From Elusimicrobiota bacterium (lineage in GTDB: Bacteria; Elusimicrobiota; UBA8919): a stretch of DNA of 64,000 nt. Within the stretch, counting starts at the first letter, position 1, and every line of letters starts with the position of its first letter. The stretch covers positions 6,899 through 70,898 of the forward strand of contig JBFLWK010000005.1 in assembly GCA_040757695.1 (NCBI GenBank), in the 5' to 3' direction. Position numbers and translations under genes: made by a program. This document shows positions 30,855 through 59,314 of this stretch, piece after piece. The notes under the pieces are model-generated. The model saw only the letters and a program-made list of their open reading frames with translations, ran no database searches and was not told the DNA's origin.

Positions 30855-31274
30855 ATGCCTGTTAAAAGAAAGTTTTTAGGTGCTGGATTAAAGTTTCCTT
30901 TTTCTATAAGTCCTGGCGGAACGAGTAAATCCGGGCTGGATACTTCAGAAGAAGAACAGCATGTTAATGAATCAATATTTCAGATACTTGCAGCCAGGCT
31001 TGGTGAACGGGTAATGAGACGTGATTTCGGTTCAAGACTGCAGGAGATACCTTTTGAGCCAACAGATGATGCTACTATATCTTTAATAAAACATTTTGTA
31101 ATTGATTCATTAAGAAAATGGGAACGAAGAGTTGAAGTCAATGATATAGACATAGAAACAAGATCAAAGGAAGGTAGGATAGAAGTGAAGTTATCAATCA
31201 GATACATAAAAACCAACAGAGTGGGCAACTTTGTATACCCATTTTTTCTTACTGGTGGAGCAGTTAGCATATGA
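30855..31274 (+). CDS. Baseplate wedge protein gpW / gp25-like.
   Basis: ESIFQILAARLGERVMRRDFGSRLQEIPFEP matches the GPW_gp25 signature. 139 aa. Confidence 0.8.
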   Translation: MPVKRKFLGAGLKFPFSISPGGTSKSGLDTSEEEQHVNESIFQILAARLGERVMRRDFGSRLQEIPFEPTDDATISLIKHFVIDSLRKWERRVEVNDIDIETRSKEGRIEVKLSIRYIKTNRVGNFVYPFFLTGGAVSI

Positions 31275-32959
31275 CAGAAGAACTAAAAGTTCCACAGGTA
31301 GACTATTCAAGTAGAGATTATGAATCAATCATTTCTGACCTGATTGCCAAAATACCGTTTTATGTAGAAGAATGGACTGATTTTAATCCTTCGGACCTCG
31401 GAATAGTACTGTTAGAACTATTCTCTTATACTGCTGATGGACTACACTATTATGTTGACCGTATGTTAAATGAGGCATTCCTGCCTACAGCAGTCCAGAG
31501 ACAGAGTGTAATAAATCTTTTAAAGTTAATAGGTTACACAATGTTCAGTGCAGTTCCAGCAAGTGTCAATTTAGAATTTAATTTAGGTGAAGTAAAACCC
31601 AGAGATATATTGATTCCGAAAGGGACAAGAATACAGACTGCAGGTGGTTCACCACTTATTTTTGAAACAACAGATGATTTGATAATTCCTGCTGGTGAAC
31701 TTACAGGTGAAATAACTGCTATTGAAGGTGAAACAAAGCAGGAAGATGTAGGTATTTCTAATGGTGATATGAACCAGAAATTCTCATTAGAAGGTGTACC
31801 AATAATTGATGGTACATTAAAGATATTTATTGATGAAGGTGCAGGGGATGTCTTATGGAATGAAGCAAAATATTTTGTTGATGTGGGACCTAATGAACAG
31901 AAATACTGCACTACAAGAGATGCTGAAGATAAAATAACCATTATGTTTGGGGATGGTATAAATGGCAGAATACCTAAAAACGGTGCAAAAATAAATGCAG
32001 AATACAGAATAGGTGGTGGTAAGAGAGGCAATGTCGGAGCAAATACAATCACTCAGGTGCTGGATACAATAATGCTTGAAGGGGTACCTATAACAATTGA
32101 TGTAACAAATCCACTGGCGTCTTCTGGTGGAGCAGATAAAGAAACAATAGAACATGCAAAAAAATATTCACCATTGCAGTTACGAGGGCAGAACCGAGCT
32201 GTCTCACTTTCAGATTATATCTGGTTAGCAGAAGGCTATCCTGGGGTATTAAAAGCAACAGTCCGTGCTTTAGTATATAAGGTCTGGGTAACAATTGTCC
32301 CTGAAGGTGGCGGATATCCATCTGAAGTTTTAAAGACAGGATTATTAGAGTATTTGAATGAACGTAAAACTATAACCACACAGGTTTATATTGAAGATCC
32401 GAAATATGTTGAAATAGATTTATCCGCAGATATTGTATGTAAGGGAAACTTTAAAAAAGCAGATGTAGAAAATAATGTATATGAAGCAGTAAACAATTTC
32501 TTTGCAATTGAGAATGTAGATTTTGAGCAACGAATAAATATCAGTGATATGTATGCATTGCTTGATGGAACAGAAGGTGTTGACTATTTAACAATGAAAA
32601 AACTTATGATGCATCCGTTGGTTTATATTGGCAGACAGTCAGCAACAGCAGAATTTAAAGATATCACTGTGAAAGAAAACATAAAGACAGAAGAATGGAC
32701 AATAAATATGATTAGCAGAACTCAATTTACTGTTGAAGGTACTGTAAGTGGTTTACAGACAAATACTGGAACTATTGGAACTAAATATACAACTGATAAC
32801 GGTGAACTTGAATTTATTCTATCTGTGCTTGTGGGTGAATTATCTGTTGATGACTGGTGGATAATAAGAGTCAGTCAGTGGTTAGGTAATGTGATGATTA
32901 AACAGAATGAATTACCAGCAAAAGGTATTGTCCAATTCAATATTACAGGGGGAATTTAA
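31271..32959 (+). CDS. Baseplate J-like protein.
   Basis: 562 aa, follows gp25-like in the conserved W-J-I order. Confidence 0.6.
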   Translation: MTEELKVPQVDYSSRDYESIISDLIAKIPFYVEEWTDFNPSDLGIVLLELFSYTADGLHYYVDRMLNEAFLPTAVQRQSVINLLKLIGYTMFSAVPASVNLEFNLGEVKPRDILIPKGTRIQTAGGSPLIFETTDDLIIPAGELTGEITAIEGETKQEDVGISNGDMNQKFSLEGVPIIDGTLKIFIDEGAGDVLWNEAKYFVDVGPNEQKYCTTRDAEDKITIMFGDGINGRIPKNGAKINAEYRIGGGKRGNVGANTITQVLDTIMLEGVPITIDVTNPLASSGGADKETIEHAKKYSPLQLRGQNRAVSLSDYIWLAEGYPGVLKATVRALVYKVWVTIVPEGGGYPSEVLKTGLLEYLNERKTITTQVYIEDPKYVEIDLSADIVCKGNFKKADVENNVYEAVNNFFAIENVDFEQRINISDMYALLDGTEGVDYLTMKKLMMHPLVYIGRQSATAEFKDITVKENIKTEEWTINMISRTQFTVEGTVSGLQTNTGTIGTKYTTDNGELEFILSVLVGELSVDDWWIIRVSQWLGNVMIKQNELPAKGIVQFNITGGI

Positions 32960-33894
32960 TGCCGGCAGAAAGAGGATGGTTAGCACCTGCTGACTTTAAA
33001 GCAGGTGAAGTAGACGAAGGTGGAGCAATAGATTTATCCTGGCAGAATCCTGCTGCTACTGACTGGGTAATAACTAAAATATACAGGAGTATAGGTTGTT
33101 ATGTAACCGACCCTTATGACTGGCGAGGTAAGTTAGTTTATGAAGGTAAAGGAACAAAATACAGGGATGAAAATTTAGAACCTTTACGGGTTTATTATTA
33201 TGTTGCATTCGGGTTTGATACTGATGGAAACTACGGTGCACTGTGTTTCAGTAGAGACTGGGCTTTAGTAGTAAAAGACTACAAGTATGAAGATTGGTTA
33301 TATTCACATTTACCTGCAATATATCGTCAGTATGATACTCAAGATAAAGTATTGAAAAGATTCTTAAGACTACCAGCATTAAAACTGAACGTAATCAGGT
33401 CATTCATTGAAGCATTTCCGCAGATGATAGATGCGGATACCTGTCCTGTTGACTATTTATGGGCAATAGCACAGTTGTTAGGAGTTGACCTTGAAGCGGT
33501 TCTTACAACACAGGAACAGAGAGCACATGTCAAAACCATACTTGATGCACGCTCATGGAAAGGTACACTCAGAGCATTGGAATATCGTCTGCGCTGGTTT
33601 CTCAAATGGAATGTATATGCTCGTGAAGGTTTTGAAAGAGTCATGATTACAAACAGGCAGGACCGAAGAACAGGCAGTTTGAAATATGTTGACCTACTTC
33701 GCAAGGAAGATGACCGTGCTGGATATGTAGCAGCAACGCGTGGTGGCTATGCTGCTGTTGATTCTGTGAATGTGTATATTTATGTTGACCCTGAAGATGT
33801 TCTGAAAGAAACTAAAAAAGAACGAGTTCCTGTATATGAAGAAGACTGGTTACCTGTTGGAGTTTATCCATATAACATATTTGTTGAGGTTTAA
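32959..33894 (+). CDS. Baseplate gpI-like protein.
   Basis: 311 aa. Position J to I to fiber. Confidence 0.45.
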   Translation: MPAERGWLAPADFKAGEVDEGGAIDLSWQNPAATDWVITKIYRSIGCYVTDPYDWRGKLVYEGKGTKYRDENLEPLRVYYYVAFGFDTDGNYGALCFSRDWALVVKDYKYEDWLYSHLPAIYRQYDTQDKVLKRFLRLPALKLNVIRSFIEAFPQMIDADTCPVDYLWAIAQLLGVDLEAVLTTQEQRAHVKTILDARSWKGTLRALEYRLRWFLKWNVYAREGFERVMITNRQDRRTGSLKYVDLLRKEDDRAGYVAATRGGYAAVDSVNVYIYVDPEDVLKETKKERVPVYEEDWLPVGVYPYNIFVEV

Positions 33895-33897
33895 ACT

Positions 33898-36306
33898 ATG
33901 CCATTAAAATTTGGTGTTTCTAAAGATTCATTTAATGAACTAAAGAATTTTGATTTTCTTGTTTTACAGCAGGACGTTCCTTGGCTTGATAGTGATTTCA
34001 ATGAAATGCAAGAAATCTTTAGAAATAAGCGTATTAAGATTTTACAGGACTTGTATCAGAATGGTGTAAACGGTGTCCCTGAAGATGACTTTAAGATATC
34101 CGCATCAGCAATAAATCAAACACAGAATTTTCTCATAAAGAAAGGCAGAGCATATATTAACGGGAAGATACTTGAACAGCATGAAGATTTTGAATATATA
34201 GACCGTGCTAATGTTTTATACGGTGTAACAAGGTTTGAACAGGATATAGACTGGTCAAAGTCAGATATATGGCTATGGTTATATCCGGAAGAAATTCTGA
34301 TAACAGAAGATGATGACCCTGCTATTGTCAATGCCGGGTTTGGTGAGACCTGTGGCAGGAAAAAGATTGTAAATGTGATTTATCCTGATTATACAGGTGC
34401 TGATTTATCTGCAACAAAAGGAATTCGGTTAGCAAAGATAACTCCTCAGAGTGGTGGAATTGTTACTGAATTCAGCATTCAGGACTTGCGTGAAGAAAAG
34501 AAAATACATGCTGAATTAGCAAAAGTTATTGACCAGACAGATATTCGTCCTGATACAACCGAGCAGGATACATGGGATGGTTCAATTGATACCTTACTGA
34601 ATAATCTCAACCGGATACGCAGTAAAATAAAAGAAATACTTGGTGGAACCAACTGGAAAGATCCATATCCATTTAATTTACGCACTGGCGGACAGGTAAC
34701 TGGCAGTATATTTACTAAATCAGGTGGAACTGTAGGAACAGAAAGTCCTGATGGTTTAATCAGTTCATTCTTAAGAACATTTAACAATTTAGTTGATATT
34801 AAAATTGATGGAACAGTGGGCAGTGACTTTCGGTTTGCTATTCGTTTCCCTGACGGTTCAGAATATTTAACCATAAAAGCAAATGGTTATGTTGGAATAA
34901 AACAGCCTCTCCCGTCTTACGGTCTGGATGTAAATGAGTCAGCCCGTATTGTCAATGATTTATATGCTAACCATGATTTCTGGCTAACAAACAGGTTTTT
35001 AATTTCTGCTACTGATAGATGGTGGTCAATAGAACGTTCAGGCCAGGGATTAAAAATCAGAGATAATAATGTCGGTGATAGATTAACAATTGATGCCAAC
35101 GGTATTTTAAGTTTTTTAGGTCCGACTTTAGATATAGGTGCAAACAAAATCAGGTTCTCACAGGAGAGTGATTTTGCTGATATTTACCTGAAGAGGTTCG
35201 GTACAGACCGTGTTGATTTGCAGATAGAATTCGGTGATAATGATACTGAAAGATTGATAATCTCACAGAATGCATCTTCCGGTAGTGGCTGGAAAGACCT
35301 GCTAATTCTAACAAGAACTCTCTTGCAACTGTATGCAGGGCTGGAAATAAGTGATAATGTTTCTGCACAGGGAATTTATTCGTCAGGAAAATTAGAATCA
35401 GGAAGCATAGTAGATTTACCTTATGCTGGTGGTAGTAAATCCAGCAATGCATTAACCTGGCGAGGAAACTGTGGAATTTATTTATCAAGTGGAATATGTC
35501 TGGAAACTGATGCTGGTAATCCTGCTGTTAAGCTAATGCCTGCGGGTGTGACAAAAGCGTATGCTGATAATGATGGATTTGTTATTTCCGGTCGTCTGTC
35601 AACAGGACATATTTATCAACCAGGATACAATTATATTTATCCAGGACGTGCAGAAAATAGTGCTTCTCAATCCAGCTGGTATTTAGCATCGCATGGTTCA
35701 TACGGCTTATATTCAAATACTGGTTTATATTTGGGTGGCGATTTATGGTGTGGTACTATTGCCAGTCGTGGATATATTGAATCCCATCGGTTTGAAAATC
35801 ATGATAAACCATTTGAATTTTTGAAATCAACATCACTCGGTGCAAATGGTTGGATATACCATGAATATTATGGTAACTGGGGTATATATCATAATAATGA
35901 CGATGACCGGATTGAGTTCTGCAAGGATTCTTCAGGAGCAAGGGATGTTAAAGTATATATTGATTTATTATACGGTCATGTGGTGGCAGACAGCGAAATT
36001 AGAGCTAATCAGTTTTTTGCTAACAGCACAAGTTATTTAGCTGAGACTTACTTGAATGGAATCTTATGGATGCAGGATAACAGAGATATAAGAATGGGTA
36101 AAAATGCTGTTCTTTATCCAGGCAGAGTTGATGGAAGTGGTGGTTACCAGAGTAGCTGGTATTTAGGTTCACACAGCAGCTATGGATTATACACGAATAC
36201 AGGTTTATATATAGCAGGAAGTTTGTGGGTAGCAGGAACTTTAAATGCAACAGTAAGTTATGCAAGTCGTGCTGGTTATGCTGACTATGCATATTATGCT
36301 TCGTAA
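33898..36306 (+). CDS. Tail fiber protein with a duplicated C-terminal module.
   Basis: 802 aa, last structural gene. Two related repeats SSWYLASHGSYGLYSNTGLYLGGDLW and SSWYLGSHSSYGLYTNTGLYIAGSLW. Confidence 0.7.
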   Translation: MPLKFGVSKDSFNELKNFDFLVLQQDVPWLDSDFNEMQEIFRNKRIKILQDLYQNGVNGVPEDDFKISASAINQTQNFLIKKGRAYINGKILEQHEDFEYIDRANVLYGVTRFEQDIDWSKSDIWLWLYPEEILITEDDDPAIVNAGFGETCGRKKIVNVIYPDYTGADLSATKGIRLAKITPQSGGIVTEFSIQDLREEKKIHAELAKVIDQTDIRPDTTEQDTWDGSIDTLLNNLNRIRSKIKEILGGTNWKDPYPFNLRTGGQVTGSIFTKSGGTVGTESPDGLISSFLRTFNNLVDIKIDGTVGSDFRFAIRFPDGSEYLTIKANGYVGIKQPLPSYGLDVNESARIVNDLYANHDFWLTNRFLISATDRWWSIERSGQGLKIRDNNVGDRLTIDANGILSFLGPTLDIGANKIRFSQESDFADIYLKRFGTDRVDLQIEFGDNDTERLIISQNASSGSGWKDLLILTRTLLQLYAGLEISDNVSAQGIYSSGKLESGSIVDLPYAGGSKSSNALTWRGNCGIYLSSGICLETDAGNPAVKLMPAGVTKAYADNDGFVISGRLSTGHIYQPGYNYIYPGRAENSASQSSWYLASHGSYGLYSNTGLYLGGDLWCGTIASRGYIESHRFENHDKPFEFLKSTSLGANGWIYHEYYGNWGIYHNNDDDRIEFCKDSSGARDVKVYIDLLYGHVVADSEIRANQFFANSTSYLAETYLNGILWMQDNRDIRMGKNAVLYPGRVDGSGGYQSSWYLGSHSSYGLYTNTGLYIAGSLWVAGTLNATVSYASRAGYADYAYYAS

Positions 36307-36327
36307 CCAAAAGGAGGCGTATTATAA

Positions 36328-36594
36328 ATGGGCAGTTGTAGAAAAGATGTATGGAGTGACTGGTGTGGAGAATATTCCTGGCATTATTATTTACAGTGGG
36401 GTGCTGGAAGTTTTACGGATGACCCTGTCAGCACATCAACAAAAATCAGGGTATCGCATATGAATGAGTTAAGAGATAAACTGAAAAGTTTAAACAGTGT
36501 TGGAACAAACTGCTGGAAATGCTGGTGTCATAACAGATGTACCTGTGATGCGAAGTGTCACTGTGATTGTCATCATTCACACTGGTGGTCATAA
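36328..36594 (+). CDS. Cys/His-rich small protein, a candidate RiPP precursor. Core reads CWKCWCHNRCTCDAKCHCDCHHSHWWS.
   Basis: AAGGAGG RBS 7 nt before the ATG. 10 Cys and 6 His in the last 30 residues. Lies immediately upstream of radical SAM enzymes. Confidence 0.55.
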   Translation: MGSCRKDVWSDWCGEYSWHYYLQWGAGSFTDDPVSTSTKIRVSHMNELRDKLKSLNSVGTNCWKCWCHNRCTCDAKCHCDCHHSHWWS

Positions 36595-36609
36595 TAGAAG
36601 GACATTACG

Positions 36610-38886
36610 ATGTTAAATAAAATCTGGTTATCAGTCACAGATAGGTGTAACCTGAACTGTAAGTACTGTTATGTTCAGAAAAAGTTCGGTCATATGTCTT
36701 TAGATGTAGCAAAACAATCTGTAATTTTTTTATGTGAAAATTCAGAGCAAGATGAAGTAGCAGTTAATTTTTTTGGTGGTGAACCTTTTATGAACTTTGA
36801 AGTTATAAAAGGTTTAATTTTGTATGGTAAAGAAGCCGGAGAAAAATATGGCAAAAACATCAAGTTTGTAATCTCAACGAATGGCACCTTGTTTACAGAT
36901 GATAAAATGGAATTTTTAAGGAAATATAAGAATACAATAGAGATTGATTTTAGTTTAGATGGAATATGTTCAAGGCAGGACCGCAACAGACCTGCGGGAG
37001 AAGTAGGCAGTTACAGAATGATAGTTGAAAATGATGTGTTAGAGAAAATCAAAGAATTCGATAATGTTGTCTATATAACAATCCTACCAGATAATATAAA
37101 AGGATTAGCAGAAGATGTTGAAGAACTGCACAGGAAAGGATTCAACAGATTTAGGATACAGACCGCAATAAATGTTTTCGGCAATATAGAGTGGAAAGAA
37201 CAAGACCTTAATCAGTATGAGAATGAATTAGAAAAAATCGGCGAGTTATTTATACAGCACTATCTTAAACCTGACTGTCTACAAATATTGGGCTGGAACG
37301 ACTATATAGAGGGAACAGTTAAAGGAGATTATGATGGCTGTGTAGCAACATTAGGAGCAGTTAATATTTACCCGAATGGAGATGTGTATCCCTGCGACTA
37401 TTTTTATCAGACAACAGACGAAAAATGGAAGTTAGGAAATATCTTTAATGAAGTAAATTTAGGTAGGAGGAAGAAGTTAGATAAACTTGTTGAAGAGATG
37501 GTGATAGAAAACGGCTGTTATAAATGTGAGTCATCAGGTAACTGTTTTGAAAAATGTATAGCAGTATTCCTGCAGCATAATAAAAAGAAATACTGCCAGC
37601 AAGAAGTTTCAAAAATAAGAATAAAGGTTTTAGACAAAATAAAAGAAAAATTAAAACCCTGGTCTTTCAGATTTTCAAATTTAGAATTATATGTCACAGA
37701 CAAATGTAATCTGAAATGCGATTACTGTTTTGAGAAATTCAGAAAGCCAGATACTATGTCATTAGAAACCTTAAAGAGAGCCACACAGATAGGTTTTGCA
37801 CGAGCAGAAACCGACAAATTAGATATAACATTTTTTGGCGGAGAACCGATGTTAGAATGGCCATTATTGAAGAAATACATTTTATGGGTTTTAGATGAAG
37901 TCAAAAAATATAAAAAGAAAACTGCATTTATAATGACAACAAATGGTATGTTCTGGAATGATGATATAGAAGAATTTATGAAGAACCACAGTGAAGTAAT
38001 TTTCTGGCAGGTAAGTTTAGACGGAATAAAAAAAATAAATGATAGACACAGAGGTAAAGGAACAACAGATACAGTTGTAGAAAACTTAAAGAAAGCAAGG
38101 AAAATATTCACTGGCTCAAATATAGGAATCAGGGCAACACTGTTACCGGATAGCGTGAAATATCTGTCAGATTCCTGTCGGTTCTTCTGGGAAGATTTGG
38201 GTATCAGAGGATTCTCATTTGCACCGGCTTTTGAATTAAACTGGAAAAAAGAAGATTTGGCTACATTAGCAGACCAGTTAGAGAAAGCATTAGATGTAAT
38301 TGAATTCGGAATAAAAGAAAGAGATGTAATAAATGAGTTCATAAATATTATCGACAGGCCATTAGAATGTAATTCTGGTGGCAGATGCGGTGCTGGAAGA
38401 GGAATGTTATCAGTTACACCTGATGGCAGTATTTATCCGTGCCACAGGTTTTATTGCAGTAATACAAGATACAGGTTAGGAGATGTCTGGAATGGAATTC
38501 AGGATTATGACAGATATGAATTTTTCAGAAGATTAGAAAAAAGGCATTTTATTAAATGCAGTGATTGTGAAATAAGTTATTGCTGTGCCTGTATGGCAAC
38601 GAGTGAAGAAATGACAGGCTCAATACTATTACCTGCAATTTCAGGCTGTCAGGTGTTTGAAGTGATAGATAAAGTTATGTGGTTAAAAGGCTGGCCAAGA
38701 ATAAAAAAAGGAGAAGGTGATTATTCAACAGGGCTGAAAGGAGAAATAGAGATTAAATTAAAAAACGGTACCTTAAAAGCGGTAGATAGAAATGATTTGG
38801 TGGTGCAGACACTAAATAGATTATTAGATGATCAGATGAGTATGCGAGAAAGAATAAACAAAATCAAAGCAGAATTAGGAATATAA
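36610..38886 (+). CDS. Tandem (double) radical SAM / SPASM-domain enzyme, a candidate peptide maturase.
   Basis: Two CxxxCxxC sites (CNLNCKYC, CNLKCDYC), each followed by FFGGEP, DG…DxxR, and SPASM Cys clusters (…CESSGNCFEKC and CNSGGRCGAG…CSDCEISYCCAC). Confidence 0.9.
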   Translation: MLNKIWLSVTDRCNLNCKYCYVQKKFGHMSLDVAKQSVIFLCENSEQDEVAVNFFGGEPFMNFEVIKGLILYGKEAGEKYGKNIKFVISTNGTLFTDDKMEFLRKYKNTIEIDFSLDGICSRQDRNRPAGEVGSYRMIVENDVLEKIKEFDNVVYITILPDNIKGLAEDVEELHRKGFNRFRIQTAINVFGNIEWKEQDLNQYENELEKIGELFIQHYLKPDCLQILGWNDYIEGTVKGDYDGCVATLGAVNIYPNGDVYPCDYFYQTTDEKWKLGNIFNEVNLGRRKKLDKLVEEMVIENGCYKCESSGNCFEKCIAVFLQHNKKKYCQQEVSKIRIKVLDKIKEKLKPWSFRFSNLELYVTDKCNLKCDYCFEKFRKPDTMSLETLKRATQIGFARAETDKLDITFFGGEPMLEWPLLKKYILWVLDEVKKYKKKTAFIMTTNGMFWNDDIEEFMKNHSEVIFWQVSLDGIKKINDRHRGKGTTDTVVENLKKARKIFTGSNIGIRATLLPDSVKYLSDSCRFFWEDLGIRGFSFAPAFELNWKKEDLATLADQLEKALDVIEFGIKERDVINEFINIIDRPLECNSGGRCGAGRGMLSVTPDGSIYPCHRFYCSNTRYRLGDVWNGIQDYDRYEFFRRLEKRHFIKCSDCEISYCCACMATSEEMTGSILLPAISGCQVFEVIDKVMWLKGWPRIKKGEGDYSTGLKGEIEIKLKNGTLKAVDRNDLVVQTLNRLLDDQMSMRERINKIKAELGI

Positions 38887-38887
38887 A

Positions 38888-39118
38888 ATGGAACAAAAAG
38901 AAAAGTATGAGGATATTGTTATCAAAGGATTATGTAGGGTTCTTGATAATCAAAAAGAAATAGTAGAAGAAATAGATAGATTACATAAATTAATTCAGGA
39001 AATCAAGAGGATCGCTGTTGCGACGAATAGGGAGCAACAGTTTTGCGGCGGGCGAGTGACGACACGAGCCCGGGGAGAACAAAATGGATGTAGAATATTC
39101 GAGAATGAAAATGGCTGA
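38888..39118 (+). CDS. Small hypothetical ORF. Its 3' half is GC-rich and structured, so coding status is uncertain.
   Basis: ATG abuts the rSAM stop. The distal part coincides with the hairpins listed above. Confidence 0.3.
   Translation: MEQKEKYEDIVIKGLCRVLDNQKEIVEEIDRLHKLIQEIKRIAVATNREQQFCGGRVTTRARGEQNGCRIFENENG
39015..39075 (+). terminator. Terminator-like hairpin (ctgttgc / gcaacag + TTTT) followed by a second GC-rich hairpin just before the 39084 start. Possible attenuator.
   Basis: 7-bp stem 39015-39021 / 39034-39040, then TTTT 39041-39044. A GC-rich island sits in otherwise AT-rich DNA and overlaps the tail of the 38888 ORF. Confidence 0.4.
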
Positions 39119-39611
39119 AGAATATTTCAACTTGTCTGCTATAAACCAGGCAGATATTAAAACTTATGTAGAAGGCCTAACAGATATCTATCCTGGTAAA
39201 TGGACAAATATAAGAGATTATATTGTCACAACAAAAGGATGTTCAAAAAATTTAGCTTTTGCAATAATGACACACGAATTATATGTTGACAAAGTGAATG
39301 GTATTGTCACTGAGGCAATTATGAATGACTTAATTTCATGGCTAAATACAAACGAGAATACTGAGTATTTAAACAATTACTGGCTTCATTCTTTAATAGG
39401 TTTATTATATTTACATTTCGGTAATGCAGAAAAAGGTATAGCCTGGTACAGACATGCACTCAAAATATATTTTGATAAAGTGGATACAGATAAAAATGCT
39501 ACTGATTCTGCATGGAAAGAAAAAATAGAAGAAGTAGTTAGTACATTAGAAAAAGCAATTTTAGACGGAAACATAAATAGATACGTTCCATTAGAGGATG
39601 TTATAGTATGA
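39084..39611 (+). CDS. Hypothetical helical (TPR-like) protein inside the rSAM cluster.
   Basis: 175-aa ORF, RBS ggggaga. Helical repeat-like …YWLHSLIGLLYLHFGNAEKGIAWYRHALKIY. Confidence 0.45.
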   Translation: MDVEYSRMKMAEEYFNLSAINQADIKTYVEGLTDIYPGKWTNIRDYIVTTKGCSKNLAFAIMTHELYVDKVNGIVTEAIMNDLISWLNTNENTEYLNNYWLHSLIGLLYLHFGNAEKGIAWYRHALKIYFDKVDTDKNATDSAWKEKIEEVVSTLEKAILDGNINRYVPLEDVIV

Positions 39612-39612
39612 A

Positions 39613-39697
39613 CCCCGTTAGACCTTTCCAGGTGTCTGATGGGGCGGTCAGATAGTAATAGAATGAGAAATTAAGAATTAGGAGGTCTAACGGGGTG
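39613..39697 (+). promoter_or_regulatory. 13-bp long-range inverted repeat (accccgttagacc / ggtctaacggggt) that sequesters the SD and GTG start of the U32-like gene.
   Basis: Left arm 39612-39624, right arm 39684-39696. SD AGGAGG at 39680-39685, GTG at 39695. Confidence 0.45.
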
Positions 39698-41023
39698 AAA
39701 TTCGCAATTCCTTTCTGCGGTAGTTTGAAGTTAACTGAGAAGATACTGAATACAGGTAAAGACAAAATAGACTGTGTTTATTTTGACTTGAACTTCCGGT
39801 ATTTAGGTTCAGGCAGAGAACAGTCAGGCTACTTTGGAATTTTAAGGTCAAACAAAGAAAAAAAGAAATGGTTAAAAGATTTTGATGCTCGTATTAAAGA
39901 GTTAATAAACGAACTGCATAGAAGAAATATCAAGGCTTATGGTTTGGTTAATCAATTAGTTTTTACTTATGAACAGACAAAAAGATTTAATGAAATTAAA
40001 AGGTATTTGAACAGAATTAAAGATATCGGATTGGACCGGCTTGTAGTAGCCAATCCTTTTGCTTTAAAGATTGCGAAAGATTGCAATTATGATGTTGAAC
40101 TGTCAGTTAATGCACTGGTGCAGGAGCCAATACAATTGGAATTATTATTACAGTTATTTCCAAATATTAAATCTATGTGTGTTCAGAGAGAGTGGAACAG
40201 AAATATTGACTTAATAAAACAGGTTAAAGAACAGTATAAATTAGAAATCAAGATACTGGTTAATGAAGGATGTCTGCCTTACTGTCCGTACAGAATAGAG
40301 CATTTTTCTTTAATGGGATTATTACCCTATCAGTTAAAAGATGAAAGAGCAGCAGTTTCTGTCTTACAGAAATATGGTTTCTGTTACTGGGTTCACAGAA
40401 AAACGCCAGTATACTCTTTGATGTCACCATTTATAAGACCGGAAGATATTAAACTGTATGAAGGTATTGCAGATGTATGCAAAATATCCGGTAGAACAAT
40501 GGGCGATCCGGTTTTACCAATGTTATGTTCTGCATATTTTAACAGTGAATTTGATGGTAATCTTTATTTCCTGTTAGATGGAGCAACAGATTATGTGAGA
40601 AATAATTTTAAGGTTGATAATAAACATTTCCCGGACGATTGGGGAAAGACAGTCAGTCACTGCAAATATAATTGCAGTGAATGTAATTATTGTTTAAAAG
40701 TAGCAGAGAAAATAATTAAGAAAAATACAAGATTTGTTTTTGAAGCAACATCGGAAGATAAAGAGATAGATGAAAATATTAAACTGGCTGCTTTGAAAAG
40801 GTTGAGTATCCTGGTGAATGATACAATGAAAATAATCTGGGGAACTAAAGTGCGGTTTATAGATTATTTGGATAATGATGATTTAGAGATACAATTATTG
40901 AACTTTTTATTTAAGAGAATTCAATTTATTAATGCATTTGTCAGAAAATTAAGTGCAGTATTCAGGATAATTAGATTCTTTTTGAAAAACAGGTGGATAA
41001 AATGGCTTACGAGTATACGCTGA
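39695..41023 (+). CDS. Peptidase U32-family protein (collagenase / UbiU-UbiV / RlhA-like Fe-S enzyme family).
   Basis: Collinear U32 blocks: KFAIPFCG (ELLAPAG-like), DCVYFDL, IKAYGLVNQLVFTYEQ, GLDRLVVANPFALKIAKD, VELSVNALV, Cys cluster CLPYCPY. GTG start. Confidence 0.7.
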   Translation: MKFAIPFCGSLKLTEKILNTGKDKIDCVYFDLNFRYLGSGREQSGYFGILRSNKEKKKWLKDFDARIKELINELHRRNIKAYGLVNQLVFTYEQTKRFNEIKRYLNRIKDIGLDRLVVANPFALKIAKDCNYDVELSVNALVQEPIQLELLLQLFPNIKSMCVQREWNRNIDLIKQVKEQYKLEIKILVNEGCLPYCPYRIEHFSLMGLLPYQLKDERAAVSVLQKYGFCYWVHRKTPVYSLMSPFIRPEDIKLYEGIADVCKISGRTMGDPVLPMLCSAYFNSEFDGNLYFLLDGATDYVRNNFKVDNKHFPDDWGKTVSHCKYNCSECNYCLKVAEKIIKKNTRFVFEATSEDKEIDENIKLAALKRLSILVNDTMKIIWGTKVRFIDYLDNDDLEIQLLNFLFKRIQFINAFVRKLSAVFRIIRFFLKNRWIKWLTSIR

Positions 41024-41439
41024 CAGATAAAAATCCGTTAAAGTTACTGGTTGAAATAAGTAGTGTTATCAGTAAAAAGTTTGAGTTAACCTATATCGGT
41101 CAGAATGGACTGTTAGTTATAGTAGATGAATTAGATACTACCGAGAAGACAGCACTGGATAATGTAATAAACTTACATACAAACACTTTTTATTTAATAA
41201 AAAACAGAAAACAAAATATCAAAGCAGATGGAATAGACACAGAACATTTAATTGCCTGTTATCCATACCAGCAGGGGGTAGTAGATATTATGATAAATGG
41301 AATTAAACAGAGTGAAGCTAATTTTGATGCTATCGGTATTGTAAAGTATGATTTCAAGACAGCAACACCGGGGACTTATGAAATCCAGTTTAAACAAGGA
41401 ACTCTGATTTCCAATATTGTAACAGTAGTGGCAGAATAA
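40993..41439 (+). CDS. Hypothetical protein.
   Basis: 148-aa ORF between the U32 gene and the B12-rSAM gene. Confidence 0.4.
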   Translation: MDKMAYEYTLTDKNPLKLLVEISSVISKKFELTYIGQNGLLVIVDELDTTEKTALDNVINLHTNTFYLIKNRKQNIKADGIDTEHLIACYPYQQGVVDIMINGIKQSEANFDAIGIVKYDFKTATPGTYEIQFKQGTLISNIVTVVAE

Positions 41440-42719
41440 TGAGAGTGTGTTTAGTTTATATTCCACCAGAGGATAATACAGATGGATGTTATATTTTGAA
41501 TCCGTTAATCGGACCGTATCTTTTAGCAGGAATATTACGTGATAAAGGTTATGAAGTAGAAGTTTTCGATAATTTATGTTTTCTGAATGAGGATTACAGT
41601 GAGTTAGTTAAGAAGATTGCCGAATATGATGTAGTTGGGATTTCGCTTCTAACTTTGTCGTGGTATAAAGTCAGAAAATTCTGTGATGATATTAAAGAAT
41701 TGAACCCGCATATCAGAATAGTTGTAGGTGGGCCGCACACAGTTTATTATGACGGATATATTTTAGAAAATTCTAAAGCAGATGCTGTAATAAGAGGAGA
41801 GGGTGAGAGAACATTTTTAAGATATTTAGAAGGTAAAACAGGGAATGGTATGACCATTAGATTGAACAGTGAGATAATCAGATACCCTGATGCAGAATAT
41901 TTAAGTAAAGAGGAATTCAAAGAATACTACAAACCAGCATATGATTTGATTAAGTATAAGTTTCCATTTCTTGCTGGTGAATTTAGTAGAGGTTGCTGGA
42001 ACAATTGTTTGTTCTGTTCAGTATTATACAGGAATAGATGGAGATGTATGGCAGATGTGGATACAGTAATAGAAAGTTATAAAAGAGATATAAATCTGGC
42101 TGGCAATATGGTTAAAGTGAAAGATGCATGGTTATTGATGGACAATTTGTTGAATGGAGATATTAGATGGGCGACAGAAGTTTTAGAGAGAATTGCGGCA
42201 GAAGGATTAAGAATAGGTTTAGCCTGTGATGTACTGGCATTTCAGGATGAAGGTTTTTTGAAAGCATTCAGAAATTCAAAGATAATATTCTGTACACTCG
42301 GTATTGAATGTGGCTATGATGAAGGACTCCAGAGATTAGGTAAGAAGTTCAGAATTAAAGATATAGAAGAAATTGCTCCCAAAATAGCAGGTGTAGGAGA
42401 AATAACAAGTTCTTTTATAATAGGCTTTCCGTGGGAAACTAAAATAGAAGCAGAAAAGACATTAAGGTTTGCACGATATTTAAGAAAGTATGATTGTTTT
42501 GAAAGTATGAACTGGTGGATCCCATTACCATCAAGGTTATGGTTTAATAGAGAGAAATATAGAATTAAAAATGTGGATGAAAGTATATGGGATGGTTTTT
42601 ATTCATTTAAGAATCCTTTTCACAGTGAATGGAATACAGGGGTTTTTCTAAAGACACATCCGGGTATATCACAGAAGGATTATGAATATTTAGAAAAAAT
42701 AAAATGTGAAGGAGGTTAA
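41439..42719 (+). CDS. B12-binding-domain radical SAM enzyme (class-B-like).
   Basis: N-terminal B12-binding Rossmann segment (VVGISLL…IRIVVGGPHTV), then the rSAM Cys motif RGCWNNCLFCS. Confidence 0.85.
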   Translation: MRVCLVYIPPEDNTDGCYILNPLIGPYLLAGILRDKGYEVEVFDNLCFLNEDYSELVKKIAEYDVVGISLLTLSWYKVRKFCDDIKELNPHIRIVVGGPHTVYYDGYILENSKADAVIRGEGERTFLRYLEGKTGNGMTIRLNSEIIRYPDAEYLSKEEFKEYYKPAYDLIKYKFPFLAGEFSRGCWNNCLFCSVLYRNRWRCMADVDTVIESYKRDINLAGNMVKVKDAWLLMDNLLNGDIRWATEVLERIAAEGLRIGLACDVLAFQDEGFLKAFRNSKIIFCTLGIECGYDEGLQRLGKKFRIKDIEEIAPKIAGVGEITSSFIIGFPWETKIEAEKTLRFARYLRKYDCFESMNWWIPLPSRLWFNREKYRIKNVDESIWDGFYSFKNPFHSEWNTGVFLKTHPGISQKDYEYLEKIKCEGG

Positions 42720-42727
42720 AGAAAAAA

Positions 42728-42946
42728 ATGGTTGATATTACAGGAACAGACCAAGGAGTTCAGGTTCATGAAATGCAGAATTTGGTAGACCAGCCAGCAG
42801 GAGCAAGAATTATTGTTTTAGTATTACCTGCAGGCTCAACATCTGCAATACCGGCGGATGCTGAAGTAAAGTATGATGGACAAGTACCAGCGGGAAAGAA
42901 ATTTACAGGTACCATTACACTCTATGGTAAATTAGAAAATGTCTAA
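42728..42946 (+). CDS. Small hypothetical protein (possible second peptide or immunity factor).
   Basis: 72-aa ORF, AGGAGG upstream. Confidence 0.35.
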   Translation: MVDITGTDQGVQVHEMQNLVDQPAGARIIVLVLPAGSTSAIPADAEVKYDGQVPAGKKFTGTITLYGKLENV

Positions 42947-43730: not shown

Positions 43731-44438
43731 ATGAACTGGTTAATTAATTTATTGAATAGAATAATAGAATTACTGAAGAAAAAGGAAGATAAAATGGAAT
43801 CTTCAAAACCACCAGTTTTGATTATCAAAAAGAAAATAACTGCAGAAGATATTATTTTAGCAAATCCAGAATTGTTTGCCGGAGATAGAAGTAAATGGAT
43901 AAAAGTACAATGGATAGTTGAACACCACAGTGCAACAAAGGACGGTAAAGTACCGGATACTCCCGCTATCTGGAAATATCATACATCATATCGTATTGAC
44001 CATGAAGTAGTATCAAAGGAAGAATTTTATTCAAGAAAAGAACTTGGATATGGCAGAACTTTTCAGGAACCGTGGATAACAATTGGATACAATGCACTGA
44101 TTGAAGAAGTGGAAGACGCTTTGAAAATATTCGCAGGTAGACCGTTAACAATGGATGGAGGTCATACAAAAGGATTGAATACAGTATCAGTTGGTATCTG
44201 CACAATTGGAGATTATGATAAAGAAACGCCTTCGGAAGAGAAATACGAATCTTGTGCTGTATTAACAAAGAAATATATGACAGTTTTTAATTTATCTATT
44301 CAGGCAGTCATTGGCCATAGAGATGCGAATAAAATGCTAGGACTTCACTATAAGAGTTGCCCCGGAGTGAAGTTTGATTTAGAGAAATTGAAACAGATTA
44401 TTTGCAAAATAGATGATAAGAGGCTAATAGGAGTATAA
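43731..44438 (+). CDS. N-acetylmuramoyl-L-alanine amidase endolysin (Amidase_2 / PGRP fold).
   Basis: WIVEHHSAT…, YHTSYRIDHE, GYNALIEE, GHTKGLNTVSVGICTIGDY, …SCPG. Zn-ligand pattern of T7-lysozyme-like amidases. Confidence 0.85.
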   Translation: MNWLINLLNRIIELLKKKEDKMESSKPPVLIIKKKITAEDIILANPELFAGDRSKWIKVQWIVEHHSATKDGKVPDTPAIWKYHTSYRIDHEVVSKEEFYSRKELGYGRTFQEPWITIGYNALIEEVEDALKIFAGRPLTMDGGHTKGLNTVSVGICTIGDYDKETPSEEKYESCAVLTKKYMTVFNLSIQAVIGHRDANKMLGLHYKSCPGVKFDLEKLKQIICKIDDKRLIGV

Positions 44439-47572: not shown

Positions 47573-47995
47573 ATGAGCAAATTAAAACGGTTCAGTATAT
47601 CACTTGATGATGATCTTGTAACAAGATTTGATAAAGAGATTAGAGAAAAAAATTATCCTACTCGCTCTAAAGCGATAGGAGATTTAATCAGGGAAGATTT
47701 TGTCAAAAAAGAATGGATAGAATGGATAGAAGGAAAAGAAGTAGCGGGAACAATTACTTTGGTTTATAATCACCATAAAAGAGAACTGGTAAATAGATTG
47801 ACCAATATTCAGCATGATTTTCACGATTTCATTATTTCGTCACAACATGTCCATTTAGACTACGACAATTGTCTGGAGATGGTTGTGGTGAAAGGCAAGC
47901 CAAAAGAAGTTGAAAAGTTAGCTCATAGATTAAAATCAACAAAAGGTGTAAAACATGGTTCTTTAACTATGGCAACAACCGGAAAAGAAATATAG
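47573..47995 (+). CDS. nikR: Nickel-responsive regulator NikR.
   Basis: N-terminal ribbon-helix-helix (RFSISLDDDLVTRFD…). C-terminal metal-binding segment QHVHLDYDNCLEMVVVKG…GVKHGSL aligns with E. coli NikR HVHINHDDCLEIAVLKG…GVRHGHL (His87 / His89 / Cys95 ligands conserved). Confidence 0.9.
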   Translation: MSKLKRFSISLDDDLVTRFDKEIREKNYPTRSKAIGDLIREDFVKKEWIEWIEGKEVAGTITLVYNHHKRELVNRLTNIQHDFHDFIISSQHVHLDYDNCLEMVVVKGKPKEVEKLAHRLKSTKGVKHGSLTMATTGKEI

Positions 47996-48149
47996 AAGTA
48001 TTATTTTTTTCTCTAATCGTAACACGATTGTGAAAAATGTATGAAAGGAGGTGGTCCTGATGTGAGAAAGGAGGTTAAAAAAGCACGAAGGCAGCCCTAC
48101 TGAGAAAAGAATTGCCTTCAGCTGGTGCTTAATGTAGTGTTCCAATTTA

Positions 48150-48215
48150 TTGGAACAAGAACCTAAGCCCATAGAAATTATACTAAATTTGTGGGCTAAA
48201 AACAAAGAAAAAGGA
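48150..48215 (+). promoter_or_regulatory. Copy F of the hairpin + ACAAAGAAAAAGG motif, upstream of the TonB-dependent receptor. This copy lies outside the prophage.
   Basis: agcccataga…tgtgggct imperfect inverted repeat, then aaaaacaaagaaaaaggag before the ATG at 48226. Confidence 0.4.
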
Positions 48216-48225
48216 GAAGAGAAAA

Positions 48226-50211
48226 ATGAAAAAAATGGGAGTTTTATTAATTGGAGTTCTGTTATTTAATTTAGTCCAGATTTGCTTAGCAGAAGAAGAA
48301 ATAGTTCCAACTTATAAGTTAGGAGAAATTGTAGTAACTGCTACAAAATCAGAAGAGTTAATTAGAGAGGTACCGGTGACGGCAGTGGTAATAACTGGTG
48401 AAGAGATTGAAAAATCTCAGGCTAAATTTATGAATGATGTCTTGGAAAAGATTCCGGGAATTAGCCTTTCGGGTTCGGATGCGTCAGGAAGGGGGCCAGT
48501 AGTAACCCTGCGTGGTGTTTATCACTATAATTCCAGTTATGTTCTGGTGCTTGTGGATGGGATGCCGATAAATTCTCCTGATACAGGAAAACCTTATGTT
48601 GATGCCATACCTTTATCAAACATAGAAAGGATAGAAGTAATAAAAGGCGGAAATTCTGCTGTCTGGGGCAGTTATGCTATGGGAGGAGTGATAAATATTA
48701 TCACTAAAGAAGGCAAAAAAACTTCTGCCCAGACTACTATTTCTCTGAGTGAATGGAATACAAAAAATTTAGATTTTTCGGGCCAGGCAGCTTTGTCCAA
48801 GGATGTTTACCTTAATATCACAGCAAACTCTAAGATGAGTGATGGCTGGAGAGCCCTTTCAAATTATGACCTTCAGACTTTTGGAGGTTCCTTGACCAAA
48901 GATAATAAAAACCTGAGTTTAAAAACTTCCTTGAGTTTTGGTTACTATGAAGAGGACACTAAGTATCCTGGTTACCTGACTGAAAAACAATGGGAAGATG
49001 GTGACTTGACATCCGGGGATACAACCTACTTTTGTGCAAGTGGAAGACAGGAAAGTAATTATATAAAACTAATATTTAAAAAGGAATTGCCATTCAATCT
49101 TTCTGGAAGGTTAAACTTAAACTATTTCAGCAAAGGTTACACTTTTTATTATCGTTCATCAGGAGGAAGTGCAGATATAAATGATGTTAATGTATTCACT
49201 GGAAGTTTACAGCTCAGTGGAGAAATGACTGAGAATAAATTTACAGTAGGATTGGATATAGATGAAGGTAAAGTAGACAGCCGGAATTATGCTGCTGATG
49301 CTGAGGAAGAAGAGATTGATAAAGATATTTTGAAAAGACATAATGATACTGACATTCACAAATTTGCTATTTATGTTCAAGATATGTGGAAAATTTTCGA
49401 TTGGTTAAATCTGAACATAGGCGTAAGGTATGATAAACTCAAGCATGATATAACTGATAGGATTAAAGATAAGAAATATAATCCTGAAGTTGATGCTATC
49501 AGCCCAAATTTAGGGTTACTTTTTAAAGTGGCTTCTAAATTGAGTCTTTTTGGTTCAATAAGTCGGGCTTTTAGATTACCAATAGAATCTCAGTTTTGTA
49601 AGAATCCTGATTTAGGGCCTGAAAAAGGGGTAAATTGTGAAATAGGAACAAAGTTTTTTACTGAAAAACTATCGAATGAGTTAAGTGTGTACCAGATGAA
49701 TGTAACTGACAAAATTACCTATGAAGAAGTATCCCCAAATAAATGGGAATACCGCAATGTGGGAGAAGTTAAACATCAGGGGATAGAGCTTACTTCCAAT
49801 TTAGACATTACTAATGAATTTTTTGTTTCTCTTTCTGGTGATATAAACCAGACAGAAATCCTTAAAGAGCCAAAATATCCTGAAAGAGTTGGTAAAAATA
49901 TTTATCAAGTTCCTCTCTGGAAAACTTCTCTGGGATTGGGATATGCAGGTGATACAGGTTTTGGAGTAAGAGCCGATTTCAATAAGATCGGAGAATGGTA
50001 TATGGACTATGAAAATGAAGAGAAGTATCCGGGATATTTTAGGACAGACCTGAAGTTCTCATGGGACAAAGATAATGTCAGCTATTACCTAACAGTTGAT
50101 AATATTTTTGATGAAAAGTATTGTCGGCAAGCATATATTTCAGGAACAAGTAAACAATATTATCCGGCTACCCCCAGGACATTTTCAGCTGGAGTTAAAG
50201 TAAAATTTTAA
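48226..50211 (+). CDS. TonB-dependent outer-membrane receptor.
   Basis: Signal peptide, plug-domain motifs (EIVVTATK…, IERIEVIKGGNSAVWG), ~22-strand barrel length, C-terminal …VKVKF. Confidence 0.85.
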   Translation: MKKMGVLLIGVLLFNLVQICLAEEEIVPTYKLGEIVVTATKSEELIREVPVTAVVITGEEIEKSQAKFMNDVLEKIPGISLSGSDASGRGPVVTLRGVYHYNSSYVLVLVDGMPINSPDTGKPYVDAIPLSNIERIEVIKGGNSAVWGSYAMGGVINIITKEGKKTSAQTTISLSEWNTKNLDFSGQAALSKDVYLNITANSKMSDGWRALSNYDLQTFGGSLTKDNKNLSLKTSLSFGYYEEDTKYPGYLTEKQWEDGDLTSGDTTYFCASGRQESNYIKLIFKKELPFNLSGRLNLNYFSKGYTFYYRSSGGSADINDVNVFTGSLQLSGEMTENKFTVGLDIDEGKVDSRNYAADAEEEEIDKDILKRHNDTDIHKFAIYVQDMWKIFDWLNLNIGVRYDKLKHDITDRIKDKKYNPEVDAISPNLGLLFKVASKLSLFGSISRAFRLPIESQFCKNPDLGPEKGVNCEIGTKFFTEKLSNELSVYQMNVTDKITYEEVSPNKWEYRNVGEVKHQGIELTSNLDITNEFFVSLSGDINQTEILKEPKYPERVGKNIYQVPLWKTSLGLGYAGDTGFGVRADFNKIGEWYMDYENEEKYPGYFRTDLKFSWDKDNVSYYLTVDNIFDEKYCRQAYISGTSKQYYPATPRTFSAGVKVKF

Positions 50212-50232
50212 AGGAGCGATAGAACTGAGATA

Positions 50233-52106: not shown

Positions 52107-52108
52107 AA

Positions 52109-53895: not shown

Positions 53896-53897
53896 TT

Positions 53898-56800: not shown

Positions 56801-57302
56801 AATAAGAGAAATGAAAGAGGAAATTGAAAGAGTGGTTCGTACCAGACTCTTGAATCCCAAATGGATAGAAGGGATGAAAAGACATGGATATAAAGGTGCG
56901 TCTGATATTTCCAAACGTATTGTCCGGATTTATGGCTGGGATGCATCAGCCGAAGTTGTAGCTGATTGGATATTTGATGATATAGCACAAGTTTTTGTTT
57001 TAGATAAAAAGATGAGGAAATTCTTTGAAGATAATAATCCTTGGGCATTAGAAGAGATAGCAAGACGCCTTCTGGAAGCAGAAAGAAGGGGTATCTGGAA
57101 AGCAGATCCACAGGTGTTAAAAGAATTACAGGACAATTATTTTGAGATTGAAGGATGGATGGAAGAGAAAATGGGAGATGTCACAGGAGAATATCAAGGT
57201 GGAAGTGTCGATATATTGACCAAGACAGAAGTAGAAGAATGGAATAAGAAAGGTCACTTTAGTATAGACAATTTTCGAAAATCGGAGGTAAAAACAAAAT
57301 GA
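53898..57302 (+). CDS. CobN / Mg-chelatase H-family large chelatase subunit.
   Basis: 1134 aa, CobN-like length and conserved blocks. Followed by a ChlI/ChlD-type partner. Confidence 0.8.
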
Positions 57303-59293: not shown

Positions 59294-59314
59294 AAAAAGA
59301 AGGAGAAAAAAATA

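Follow-up and report, generated by a model that had tools for sequence, protein, structure and literature searches.

Radical S-adenosylmethionine (radical SAM) enzymes with a SPASM domain that mature a Cys-rich target are known from PapB/freyrasin, SCIFF/CteB and the CXXX-repeat families. PapB forms its cross-links between Cys and Asp or Glu, at spacings that can range from 0 to 6 residues (PMC9413430). CteB makes Cys thioethers in a Cys-rich peptide, and the CXXX-repeat families (TIGR04114, TIGR04115, TIGR04117 and TIGR04119), for which no describing paper was found in the literature, were defined bioinformatically and place a long Cys-repeat protein beside a SPASM radical SAM enzyme devoid of a recognition element (RRE, for RiPP recognition element). 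In the HXS system (HxsA-D), which operates between phage and host, a protein effector with repeats is matured by two radical SAM enzymes together with a small protein, a precedent for paired radical SAM enzymes modifying a protein rather than a short peptide (PMC13128918). The locus reported here lies in a 64,000-nucleotide stretch, called the window, of an Elusimicrobiota bacterium (GenBank assembly GCA_040757695.1, contig JBFLWK010000005.1, positions 6,899 to 70,898 of the forward strand; coordinates below are those of the window). It combines, among the late genes of a phage, the gene of an 88-residue protein with a Cys-rich tail and that of a fused double radical SAM/SPASM enzyme, together with further genes up to position 42946. 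An earlier note on this DNA had read it as a cluster for a ribosomally synthesised and post-translationally modified peptide (RiPP), and every open reading frame (ORF) that it assigned to the cluster was recovered at the same position.

The 758-aa enzyme, whose gene starts 15 nt after the 88-aa gene, shows two Radical_SAM, two Fer4_12 and two SPASM (PF13186) domain matches, CxxxCxxC motifs at residues 13/17/20 and 366/370/373, and SPASM cysteines at 244-329 (seven Cys) and 587-680, in agreement with its earlier description as two complete radical SAM and SPASM domains in tandem. The N-terminal module (residues 1-350; 36610..37659, + strand) and the C-terminal module (residues 351-758; 37660..38886, +), which were recognised from PapB and SCIFF model scores, are 30% identical to each other. 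PapB was the top-scoring curated family for each half, with end-to-end alignment (201.1 bits over positions 4-324 of 330 for the N-terminal half and 218.2 bits for the C-terminal half), followed by SCIFF (145 and 159 bits, cut-off 425) and then by the nif11, CcpM, QhpD and CXXX-repeat maturases. Judged by these scores, the halves are nearest to the thioether-forming RiPP maturases PapB, SCIFF/CteB and QhpD. The whole fusion reaches 412 bits against the PapB cut-off of 340 (NF047865), which it passes solely through the summing of two modules, each of which stays below it, and the fused maturase is a member of no curated equivalog family. The closest solved structure is CteB (5WGG, 133.8 bits), with an alignment that begins only at CteB residue 99 while the CxxxCxxC motif stands already at residue 13 of the window enzyme, so that the N-terminal RRE is absent; domain-model scans likewise detected no PqqD/RRE domain in the enzyme, in the 175-aa and 76-aa ORFs or in any other ORF of the cluster. 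An anaerobic sulfatase maturase or cofactor enzyme, the alternative raised in the earlier note, was rejected since the TIGR03942 model gave 129.9 bits for both modules summed against a cut-off of 349, the single halves missing even the 1e-20 listing threshold.

The double enzyme was described as rare, and this holds, with a handful of fusions among 76 hits, further ones being P0003, P0004 and P0026. A scan of viral contigs with the fused enzyme as a single protein gave no relatives. Many viral loci, on the other hand, carry two to four separate radical SAM genes, and the window enzyme is therefore a fused pair and not a new architecture in kind; its C-terminal half is closer than its N-terminal half to the main radical SAM enzyme of other loci, as seen from higher scores. 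One further fused double radical SAM gene (L003, 7471-15375) occurs at a GC-rich, non-phage-looking locus with two B12-binding radical SAM genes, an epimerase and a CHAT-TPR protein, where no Cys-rich partner was evident, which indicates that the fusion is not confined to phages.

The gene of the 88-aa protein (36328..36594, +), present in the ORF list and called by both NCBI and Logan, is preceded 10 nt 5' of its ATG by the Shine-Dalgarno site AAGGAGG (36311..36317, +), read from the sequence, and the strong ribosome-binding site noted earlier is thereby confirmed. The protein consists of a W/Y-rich N-terminus (residues 1-27), a helix-forming unit of the 'WTD...IK..H..ELR' type (residues 28-56, SFTDDPVSTSTKIRVSHMNELRDKLKSLN; 36409..36495, +), a short linker and a Cys/His/Asp-rich tail of the period-2 CxC class (residues 62-88; 36511..36591, +), the class being assigned by tail analysis. 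The full-length protein holds 10 Cys, and its last 27 residues (CWKCWCHNRCTCDAKCHCDCHHSHWWS) hold 8 Cys (positions 62, 65, 67, 71, 73, 77, 79 and 81, with two C-x-C-D motifs) and 5 His, and not the 10 Cys and 6 His counted earlier in the last ~30 residues.

Compared with the PapB/PapA pair, the locus has the same SPASM architecture and a substrate in which Cys is followed by Asp (C-x-C-D), but it differs by its sub-cut-off halves, the missing RRE, the fusion of two modules, the phage tail context, and a substrate in which the cysteines have a CxC period and a folded unit at the N-terminus takes the place of a PapA-type leader. CteB provides the closest structure, whereas the SCIFF precursor is a ~45-aa, six-Cys peptide and the window protein, with its 88 aa and 8-Cys tail, has no NCBIfam match. 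The CXXX-repeat systems share the Cys-repeat protein next to an RRE-less SPASM enzyme; nevertheless the tail of the window protein has a period of 2 and not 4, and the enzyme halves score 110 and 131 bits against 350 on TIGR04115.

Pairing of Cys-tail proteins with radical SAM genes in phages

A word-indexed homology search of 5.8 billion proteins with the 88-aa peptide returned only the peptide itself, and tblastn of GenBank phages with the window peptide, a similar peptide from locus L002 and two N-terminal domains gave nothing useful. Annotated isolates with related radical SAM enzymes (Campylobacter phage CP220 and Phass-1) were uninformative as well. Because relatives of the peptide were invisible to direct search, they were resolved through the genomic context of related radical SAM enzymes. 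Scanning IMG/VR with an alignment of the double enzymes revealed at least 374 viral stretches encoding relatives of the enzyme, 79 of which were kept as loci. In nearly all of these, an ORF dense in Cys repeats (CxC or CxxxC) adjoins the radical SAM gene(s) on the same strand. After removal of redundancy (33 clusters at 60% radical SAM identity), a same-strand Cys-repeat ORF was found at most 3 kb from the radical SAM gene in 27 clusters, compared to one cluster when a comparable amount of DNA farther off was considered and one when the opposite strand was considered. Of 80 loci obtained with the same query from species-representative genomes of bacteria and archaea, about 2 had true Cys repeats. 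The pairing is thus far beyond chance and strongly enriched in phages, and the small Cys-rich ORF of the window, as proposed earlier, is a genuine partner of the radical SAM/SPASM enzyme. The adjoining of precursor and modifying enzyme that is typical of RiPP clusters is accordingly present, in the window through the 15-nt gap and elsewhere in these 27 of 33 clusters.

A direct link between the window and the other loci is given by the 145-aa Cys-tail protein of L086, to which the 88-aa peptide is related with a phmmer E-value of 7.5e-9, so that by its sequence the peptide is placed in a phage Cys-tail family and is not an orphan. In L002, a 95-aa ORF located after fibre-like genes and one gene 5' of a double radical SAM gene shares the layout of the window peptide (...VIKASHIEDLREK... 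then CSCTCTCTCKCTCTCTC...). Other partner proteins reach 200-500 aa, some with FN3 or Hint domains, and many sister viral loci of the L045 type reach TIGR04114 (42.8 bits against 20 for L045) and nearly reach TIGR04117. Among the compared cassettes that of the window is the smallest, with one 88-aa substrate and one fused enzyme.

Several loci deserve mention on their own. In L040 (4405-5520), a 371-aa partner with three helix units and a CxxC/CxxxC array continues into a Hint (intein-like) domain (PF05203, 1.2e-9), which suggests that the Cys-repeat segment of some lineages undergoes autoproteolytic release or ligation. The cassettes of L048 (7992-17048) and L008 (3371-12248), on contigs of jumbo-phage size (186-246 kb), are expanded versions, in which three or four radical SAM genes alternate with the genes of two or three distinct Cys-repeat proteins. 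In L004 (6552-11289), a phage-like contig that also has gyrase and topoisomerase IV genes close by, two single radical SAM enzymes, a fused double one and a 209-aa protein with Cys arrays at both ends are encoded; the C-terminal SSHYSSHYSSHYSSS tail of this protein consists of three His-Xaa-Ser repeats and in this resembles the effector of the HXS defence system.

The position of the Cys-tail gene is equally constant. In the window, a baseplate J-like gene (31271-32959, +; phrog_219/phrog_6 baseplate wedge), a P2 gpI-like gene (32959-33894, +; PF09684 Tail_P2_I) and the gene of an 802-aa putative tail fibre (33898-36306, +) precede it. The same gene order is found in P0085 (L091), where gp25, baseplate J, Tail_P2_I and an 804-aa fibre equivalent (phrog_7389 tail fibre, 2.8e-76) are followed by a 210-aa Cys-tail protein and a radical SAM enzyme. 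In P0084 (L086-88), the tape measure gene is followed, after other genes, by baseplate J, a 334-aa and a 47-aa protein, a 381-aa fibre-like protein and the 145-aa Cys-tail protein, then by a family-less 332-aa protein, a radical SAM, a B12-binding radical SAM and a second radical SAM enzyme and more family-less genes. In P0181 (L089/90) the order is tail protein, 158-aa Cys-tail protein, family-less protein, flavokinase-like protein, radical SAM and B12-binding radical SAM enzyme. PHROG assignments of the upstream neighbour point to a baseplate wedge in L076 and a tail/baseplate protein in L089 for other myovirus-type loci, and, in siphovirus-type loci, to the central tail fibre J in L007 (1e-116) and L013 (3.5e-60) and to a tail fibre in L040. 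The Cys-tail gene therefore directly follows a fibre or host-specificity gene in myovirus-type and siphovirus-type loci alike, a slot that favours the tail-fibre accessory mentioned in the earlier note as an alternative. In gene content, family relationships, co-occurrence and gene position, these data show, at the level of sequence, that in many phages a Cys-tail protein and thioether-type SPASM radical SAM enzymes occur together as a conserved cassette within the module for host recognition. The window carries all of its elements, namely the helix unit, the Cys tail, the adjoining radical SAM gene and the fibre gene upstream.

The helix unit (consensus of ~30 aa, s[WF]TDdp..g.t.IK..H[IV].ELR.aI.) is present in one to three copies at the start of many partner proteins and precedes the Cys-repeat tails of other phage proteins usually as three tandem copies. 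A hidden Markov model (HMM) derived from 16 units found in six other phages, the window being excluded, was searched against 7,984 ORFs; it matched residues 28-56 of the window peptide (E=2.5e-6) and the L002 peptide (9e-4), and all 12 of its matches were Cys-repeat ORFs. The window unit aligns with the third, tail-proximal unit of three-unit relatives. With a three-unit profile, 185 proteins were retrieved, Cys tails being present in 27 of the 120 listed. Tails much like that of the window, rich in Cys, His and Asp with repeated C-x-C-D motifs, are found in P0084, P0181, P0145 and P0136. Across the family the residues between the Cys are T, S, D, E, N, Q, G and H, with T, S, E, N and Q dominating the tails that are not of the CxCD kind, and most tails (CTCTCT, CTGSCTGS) are without His.

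AlphaFold2 (AF2) modelling of P0084 with a 50-sequence alignment gave a predicted local distance difference test score (pLDDT) of 83.5 and a predicted template modelling score of 0.80, with pLDDT above 90 over the three units, which form three helices each after an extended segment, and a Cys tail that is unstructured in the model (pLDDT ~48). A BFVD fold search with the three-unit domain found uncharacterised phage proteins as best matches, at a template modelling score of about 0.5. In an exhaustive profile search, 8,323 representatives (50% identity) of the unit domain were found at E≤1e-3 and 2,117 at E≤1e-30, mostly C-terminal in large proteins, and no Pfam model exists for it. In cellular proteins it occurs after InlB-type repeats, M10/M6 peptidases, amidase, FN3, Big, BACON and Calx-beta domains, and in some it stands alone behind a signal peptide. 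In its three-unit form ('FTDxxLTAGxTxIKAVHITELRTAIN') the domain is located C-terminally in secreted peptidases, in an amidase and in proteins with Ig-like repeats, the majority of them from metagenome-assembled genomes (MAGs) of soil. Given the confident P0084 model, the 8,323 representatives and the fusions to varied domains, the N-terminal unit is an autonomous, widely reused domain with a predicted helical fold rather than a leader to be discarded.

The B12-binding (class B) radical SAM enzyme proposed earlier at 41439..42719 (+) also stands, with PF02310 (61.5 bits, cut-off 32.1) and PF04055 (35.6 bits, cut-off 29.5) both above their cut-offs and a CWNNCLFC motif. It reaches no equivalog cut-off and has weak ApyD and TIGR03975 matches; the closest PDB chains are 9ccb, CysS and TokK, the latter two being methyltransferases, and the enzyme is considered a candidate C-methyltransferase. 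Homologues are encoded close to the Cys-tail genes of L089 (phmmer 1e-11) and L086 (7e-6). The enzyme recurs throughout the sister loci L086-L090 as a conserved cassette member, and gene content shows it as a part of the cassette in the subclass to which the window belongs. An alignment-based scan of viral sequences with this enzyme gave one locus, L172, which lacks a Cys-rich partner. The idea of accompanying tailoring enzymes is supported for the B12-binding enzyme by its recurrence in the sister loci. The U32-like gene and the small ORFs of the cluster recur nowhere else, and a tailoring role for them has no support. Within the cassettes of L086 (11290-11389 and 12700-12851) and L089 (4650-4774 and 6140-6302), the SPASM and B12-binding radical SAM enzymes share a C-terminal helical motif of ~30 aa (..K.a.vLlDIaSQNeEI..), which could be a common docking element. 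Such a shared docking helix was not retained for the window, where the enzyme C-terminus and the 76-aa ORF resemble it by eye and are both missed by the HMM.

As to novelty, the earlier note considered phage-borne clusters of this type essentially undescribed. No description of the cassette was found in the full-text literature of the searchable library, but at least 374 viral stretches carry relatives of the enzyme, and parts of the cassette fall within the existing models TIGR04114/04115/04117 and PHROGs 1802/6085, the PHROGs having no assigned function; among the sequences of uncultured phages it is common. The features not found described are its place in the phage tail module, the folded unit at the N-terminus, CxC(D) tails of period 2 and the conserved B12-binding partner.

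Proposed function and alternative explanations

The reading favoured here, with a probability of about one half, is that the phage uses maturases of its own to put thioether staples into a tail-module protein, which then acts as a hardened tail-fibre-associated protein. The 88-aa product would be the substrate, in a cassette belonging to the tail-fibre (host-recognition) module. The one-unit protein may trimerise or dock on a partner, for example a trimeric fibre, giving the bundle that three-unit relatives would form within one chain; that it needs partners fits the low confidence of its lone AF2 model. Its CxC tail, the presumed site of modification, would be modified late in infection, in the anaerobic cytoplasm of the host, by the fused pair of SPASM radical SAM enzymes, most likely with thioether cross-links that join the sulfur of Cys to a carbon of a nearby Asp, Thr, His or Asn residue (-2 Da per link), the Asp of the CxCD motifs being the obvious acceptor. 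The B12-binding enzyme would probably add a further modification, most likely C-methylation. Since no peptidase and no exporter were found in the cluster, the product would keep its N-terminal domain, stay intact and associate with the fibre. The end product would be a rigid, protease- and redox-resistant tail-fibre-associated protein serving as tip, cap, adaptor or assembly factor, and probably not a freely secreted antibiotic. The relationship between enzyme and substrate is considerably more secure than the role in the virion, and the thioether chemistry, the trimerisation and the presence in the virion are inferred.

Several points weigh against this reading. It is built on sequence and models, the members of the cassette being known as genes. 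The AF2 monomer of the window peptide reaches a pLDDT of 56 and is confident for helix 42-58 only, for which reason it was left out of the fold comparison, and this poor prediction makes trimerisation a conjecture; the three-unit domain itself had no neighbour in a fold search of the PDB. The radical SAM halves are below every curated family cut-off and lack an RRE, and the U32-like gene and four small ORFs are specific to the window phage. In cellular proteins the unit domain is found on secreted enzymes, with which a binding role outside the cell and without relation to virions would agree as well, and late-made products are released at lysis anyway, which would allow a free extracellular role.

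The last point leads to the RiPP reading, the architecture of which was borne out as far as the precursor adjoins a SPASM maturase of RiPP-nearest families, and failed for the removable leader, peptidase, exporter and RRE. A true RiPP, in which an N-terminal leader would precede a cross-linked tail that is cut by a host or other protease and released at lysis as bacteriocin, signal or metallophore, would agree with this gene pair, with the conserved motif ahead of the Cys core, with the weak ApyD and TIGR03975 matches of the B12-binding enzyme, a type common in RiPP tailoring, and with the fact that release by lysis requires no exporter. It is nevertheless considered unlikely. Scans with domain, NCBIfam and PHROG models found no peptidase, transporter or immunity family in 36328-42946, as the earlier note had already remarked for exporter and leader peptidase, and the leader and export features of RiPP clusters are thus missing, together with a double-glycine site and an RRE, so that the bacteriocin-like weapon or signal suggested earlier receives no specific support. 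Moreover, the supposed leader is an autonomous domain widespread outside RiPP contexts, many partners have 200-500 aa and extra domains, and a cargo toxin would not be expected to keep, in unrelated types of phage, a fixed slot behind the fibre or host-specificity gene. The same slot would rather suit a tail-fibre assembly chaperone or scaffold acting inside the cell and outside the finished particle, with a modification that tunes its stability, metal or redox state. In P2 the gpG gene follows the gpH gene, and the Cys-tail gene, coming after W-J-I-H and directly 3' of the fibre gene behind baseplate J and gpI, occupies the place of gpG/Tfa in P2- and Mu-like phages; its small size and predicted need for a partner point the same way. 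However, domain, NCBIfam and PHROG scans revealed no similarity to known Tfa or gpG families, to our knowledge no Tfa protein is Cys-rich or accompanied by radical SAM enzymes, two to four dedicated enzymes of this kind are hard to explain for a transient chaperone, and the gpJ-like proteins behind which the gene lies in siphovirus-type loci are without a chaperone of this kind. This explanation is accordingly held to be improbable.

That the tail is rich in both Cys and His (CHCDCHHSH) raises the possibility of a metal-binding element holding Fe, Zn or an Fe-S cluster, with radical SAM enzymes that are not its cross-linkers; metal ions are held by His or Cys in the T4 gp37 tip and in PAAR/spike tips. 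The tight, strand-specific pairing with SPASM enzymes of the thioether type argues instead for an enzyme-substrate pair, and His is missing from most tails of the family, which makes this proposal very improbable. Accessory genes are often found near tail-fibre genes, and hence a conflict effector acting inside the cell or in the periplasm, in superinfection exclusion or anti-defence and by analogy with the radical SAM-matured HxsA, was also considered. The combination of paired radical SAM enzymes with a small repeat-bearing protein does resemble HXS (PMC13128918), and the enzyme halves match the HxsB model moderately (98 and 77 bits). These HxsB scores and those for HxsC are, however, far under the cut-offs. 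HXS is moreover bacterial and defensive, with a periplasmic effector that bears a peptidoglycan-binding domain and HxS repeats, whereas the window system is phage-encoded, has Cys repeats and neither a signal peptide nor a peptidoglycan-binding domain, and lies in a tail-gene string; across many lineages the gene sits within late structural genes and not in early or lysogeny regions. Of the explanations weighed, this is the one given least credence.

Stapling of a tail-fibre-associated protein may extend beyond the window. Tentatively, and with less confidence than for the locus itself, phages of anaerobes are proposed to thioether-staple a tail-fibre-associated virion protein, with an additional B12-dependent modification, by means of their own radical SAM enzymes. 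This would be a new class of covalent virion modification, widespread in myovirus-type and siphovirus-type phages of gut, sediment and soil and set on an unannotated three-helix anchoring domain.

Neighbouring genes and meaning of the cassette

The remaining genes of the cluster lie between the two enzymes and behind them. A 76-aa ORF (38888..39118, +) overlaps the next ORF, which encodes a 175-aa protein with a weak TPR-like signal (39084..39611, +; TPR_8 E=0.0039, under the cut-off); they are followed by the U32-like gene (442 aa; 39695..41023, +), a 148-aa ORF (40993..41439, +) and, after the B12-binding enzyme, a 72-aa ORF (42728..42946, +), the final gene before the lysis region. Domain, NCBIfam and PHROG scans gave no significant family match for the 76-, 175-, 148- and 72-aa ORFs, and no counterparts of them were found in the other cassette loci. 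The 175-aa ORF is placed like the family-less proteins between the Cys-tail and radical SAM genes of L002, L086 and L089. BLASTP revealed no significant similarity of it to the L086 and L002 counterparts, and a conserved trans-acting recognition protein was rejected, there being no RRE signal and no resemblance between these proteins of the same slot. The assignment of the 442-aa protein to the U32 family can be kept only as a weak one, as PF01136 is just exceeded (24.2 bits against 22.4) but through model positions 2-90 of 233 alone, and the UbiU score is 15 bits where 440 are required; the protein also matches phrog_5757 (2.3e-14). No match was obtained in a sequence search of the PDB and no relatives in viral contigs or fetched loci.

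The genes of the phage in the window comprise terminase, portal, sheath, tape measure, gp25-like, baseplate J, P2 gpI-like and fibre genes, then the cluster and an amidase endolysin (43731..44438, +; phrog_35436, phrog_822 and phrog_1493), from which a myovirus-type phage within an Elusimicrobiota MAG is recognised. From fibre to lysis the genes are packed tightly or overlap, and promoter-like and terminator-like sites show no excess over shuffled sequence. These observations agree with the earlier placement of the cluster in the late tail-to-lysis gene string and are consistent with a single late transcript, without being proof of it.

From ~47.5 kb the window holds a complete metal-uptake and chelatase operon (47573-60873, +) with NikR, a TonB-dependent receptor, a BtuF-like binding protein, an FecCD permease, an ABC ATPase, a Gate-domain protein, CobN (1146 bits), a ChlI/D-like AAA+VWA protein, ExbB, ExbD and TonB. 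It looks like host DNA flanking a prophage, or else unusual prophage cargo, and its location 5 kb from the B12-dependent radical SAM gene may or may not be a coincidence. This host-like operon is followed, on the other strand, by a double helix-turn-helix regulator and a large serine recombinase (61077-63363, -), and the element is therefore probably an integrated prophage. In the head-gene region, a 1248-aa protein (7766-11512, +) fuses an ATP-dependent DNA ligase (PF01068) to a D12-class N6-adenine DNA methyltransferase (PF02086), and a Mu F-like head protein with two Rho_N motifs (4452-6677, +) has a C-terminal region that weakly matches, below threshold, the anthrax lethal factor N/C-terminal domain (ATLF).

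Taken together, the cassette of the window, being the smallest version, is a directly testable system. Through such phages, the function of a large unannotated extracellular domain family (8,323 representatives) becomes approachable, and RRE-independent maturases acting on very regular CxC/CxxxC arrays could serve peptide stapling. If the product is virion-associated, radical SAM thioether chemistry, which has been studied mainly in small secreted peptides, would also harden or shape the host-recognition apparatus of viruses.

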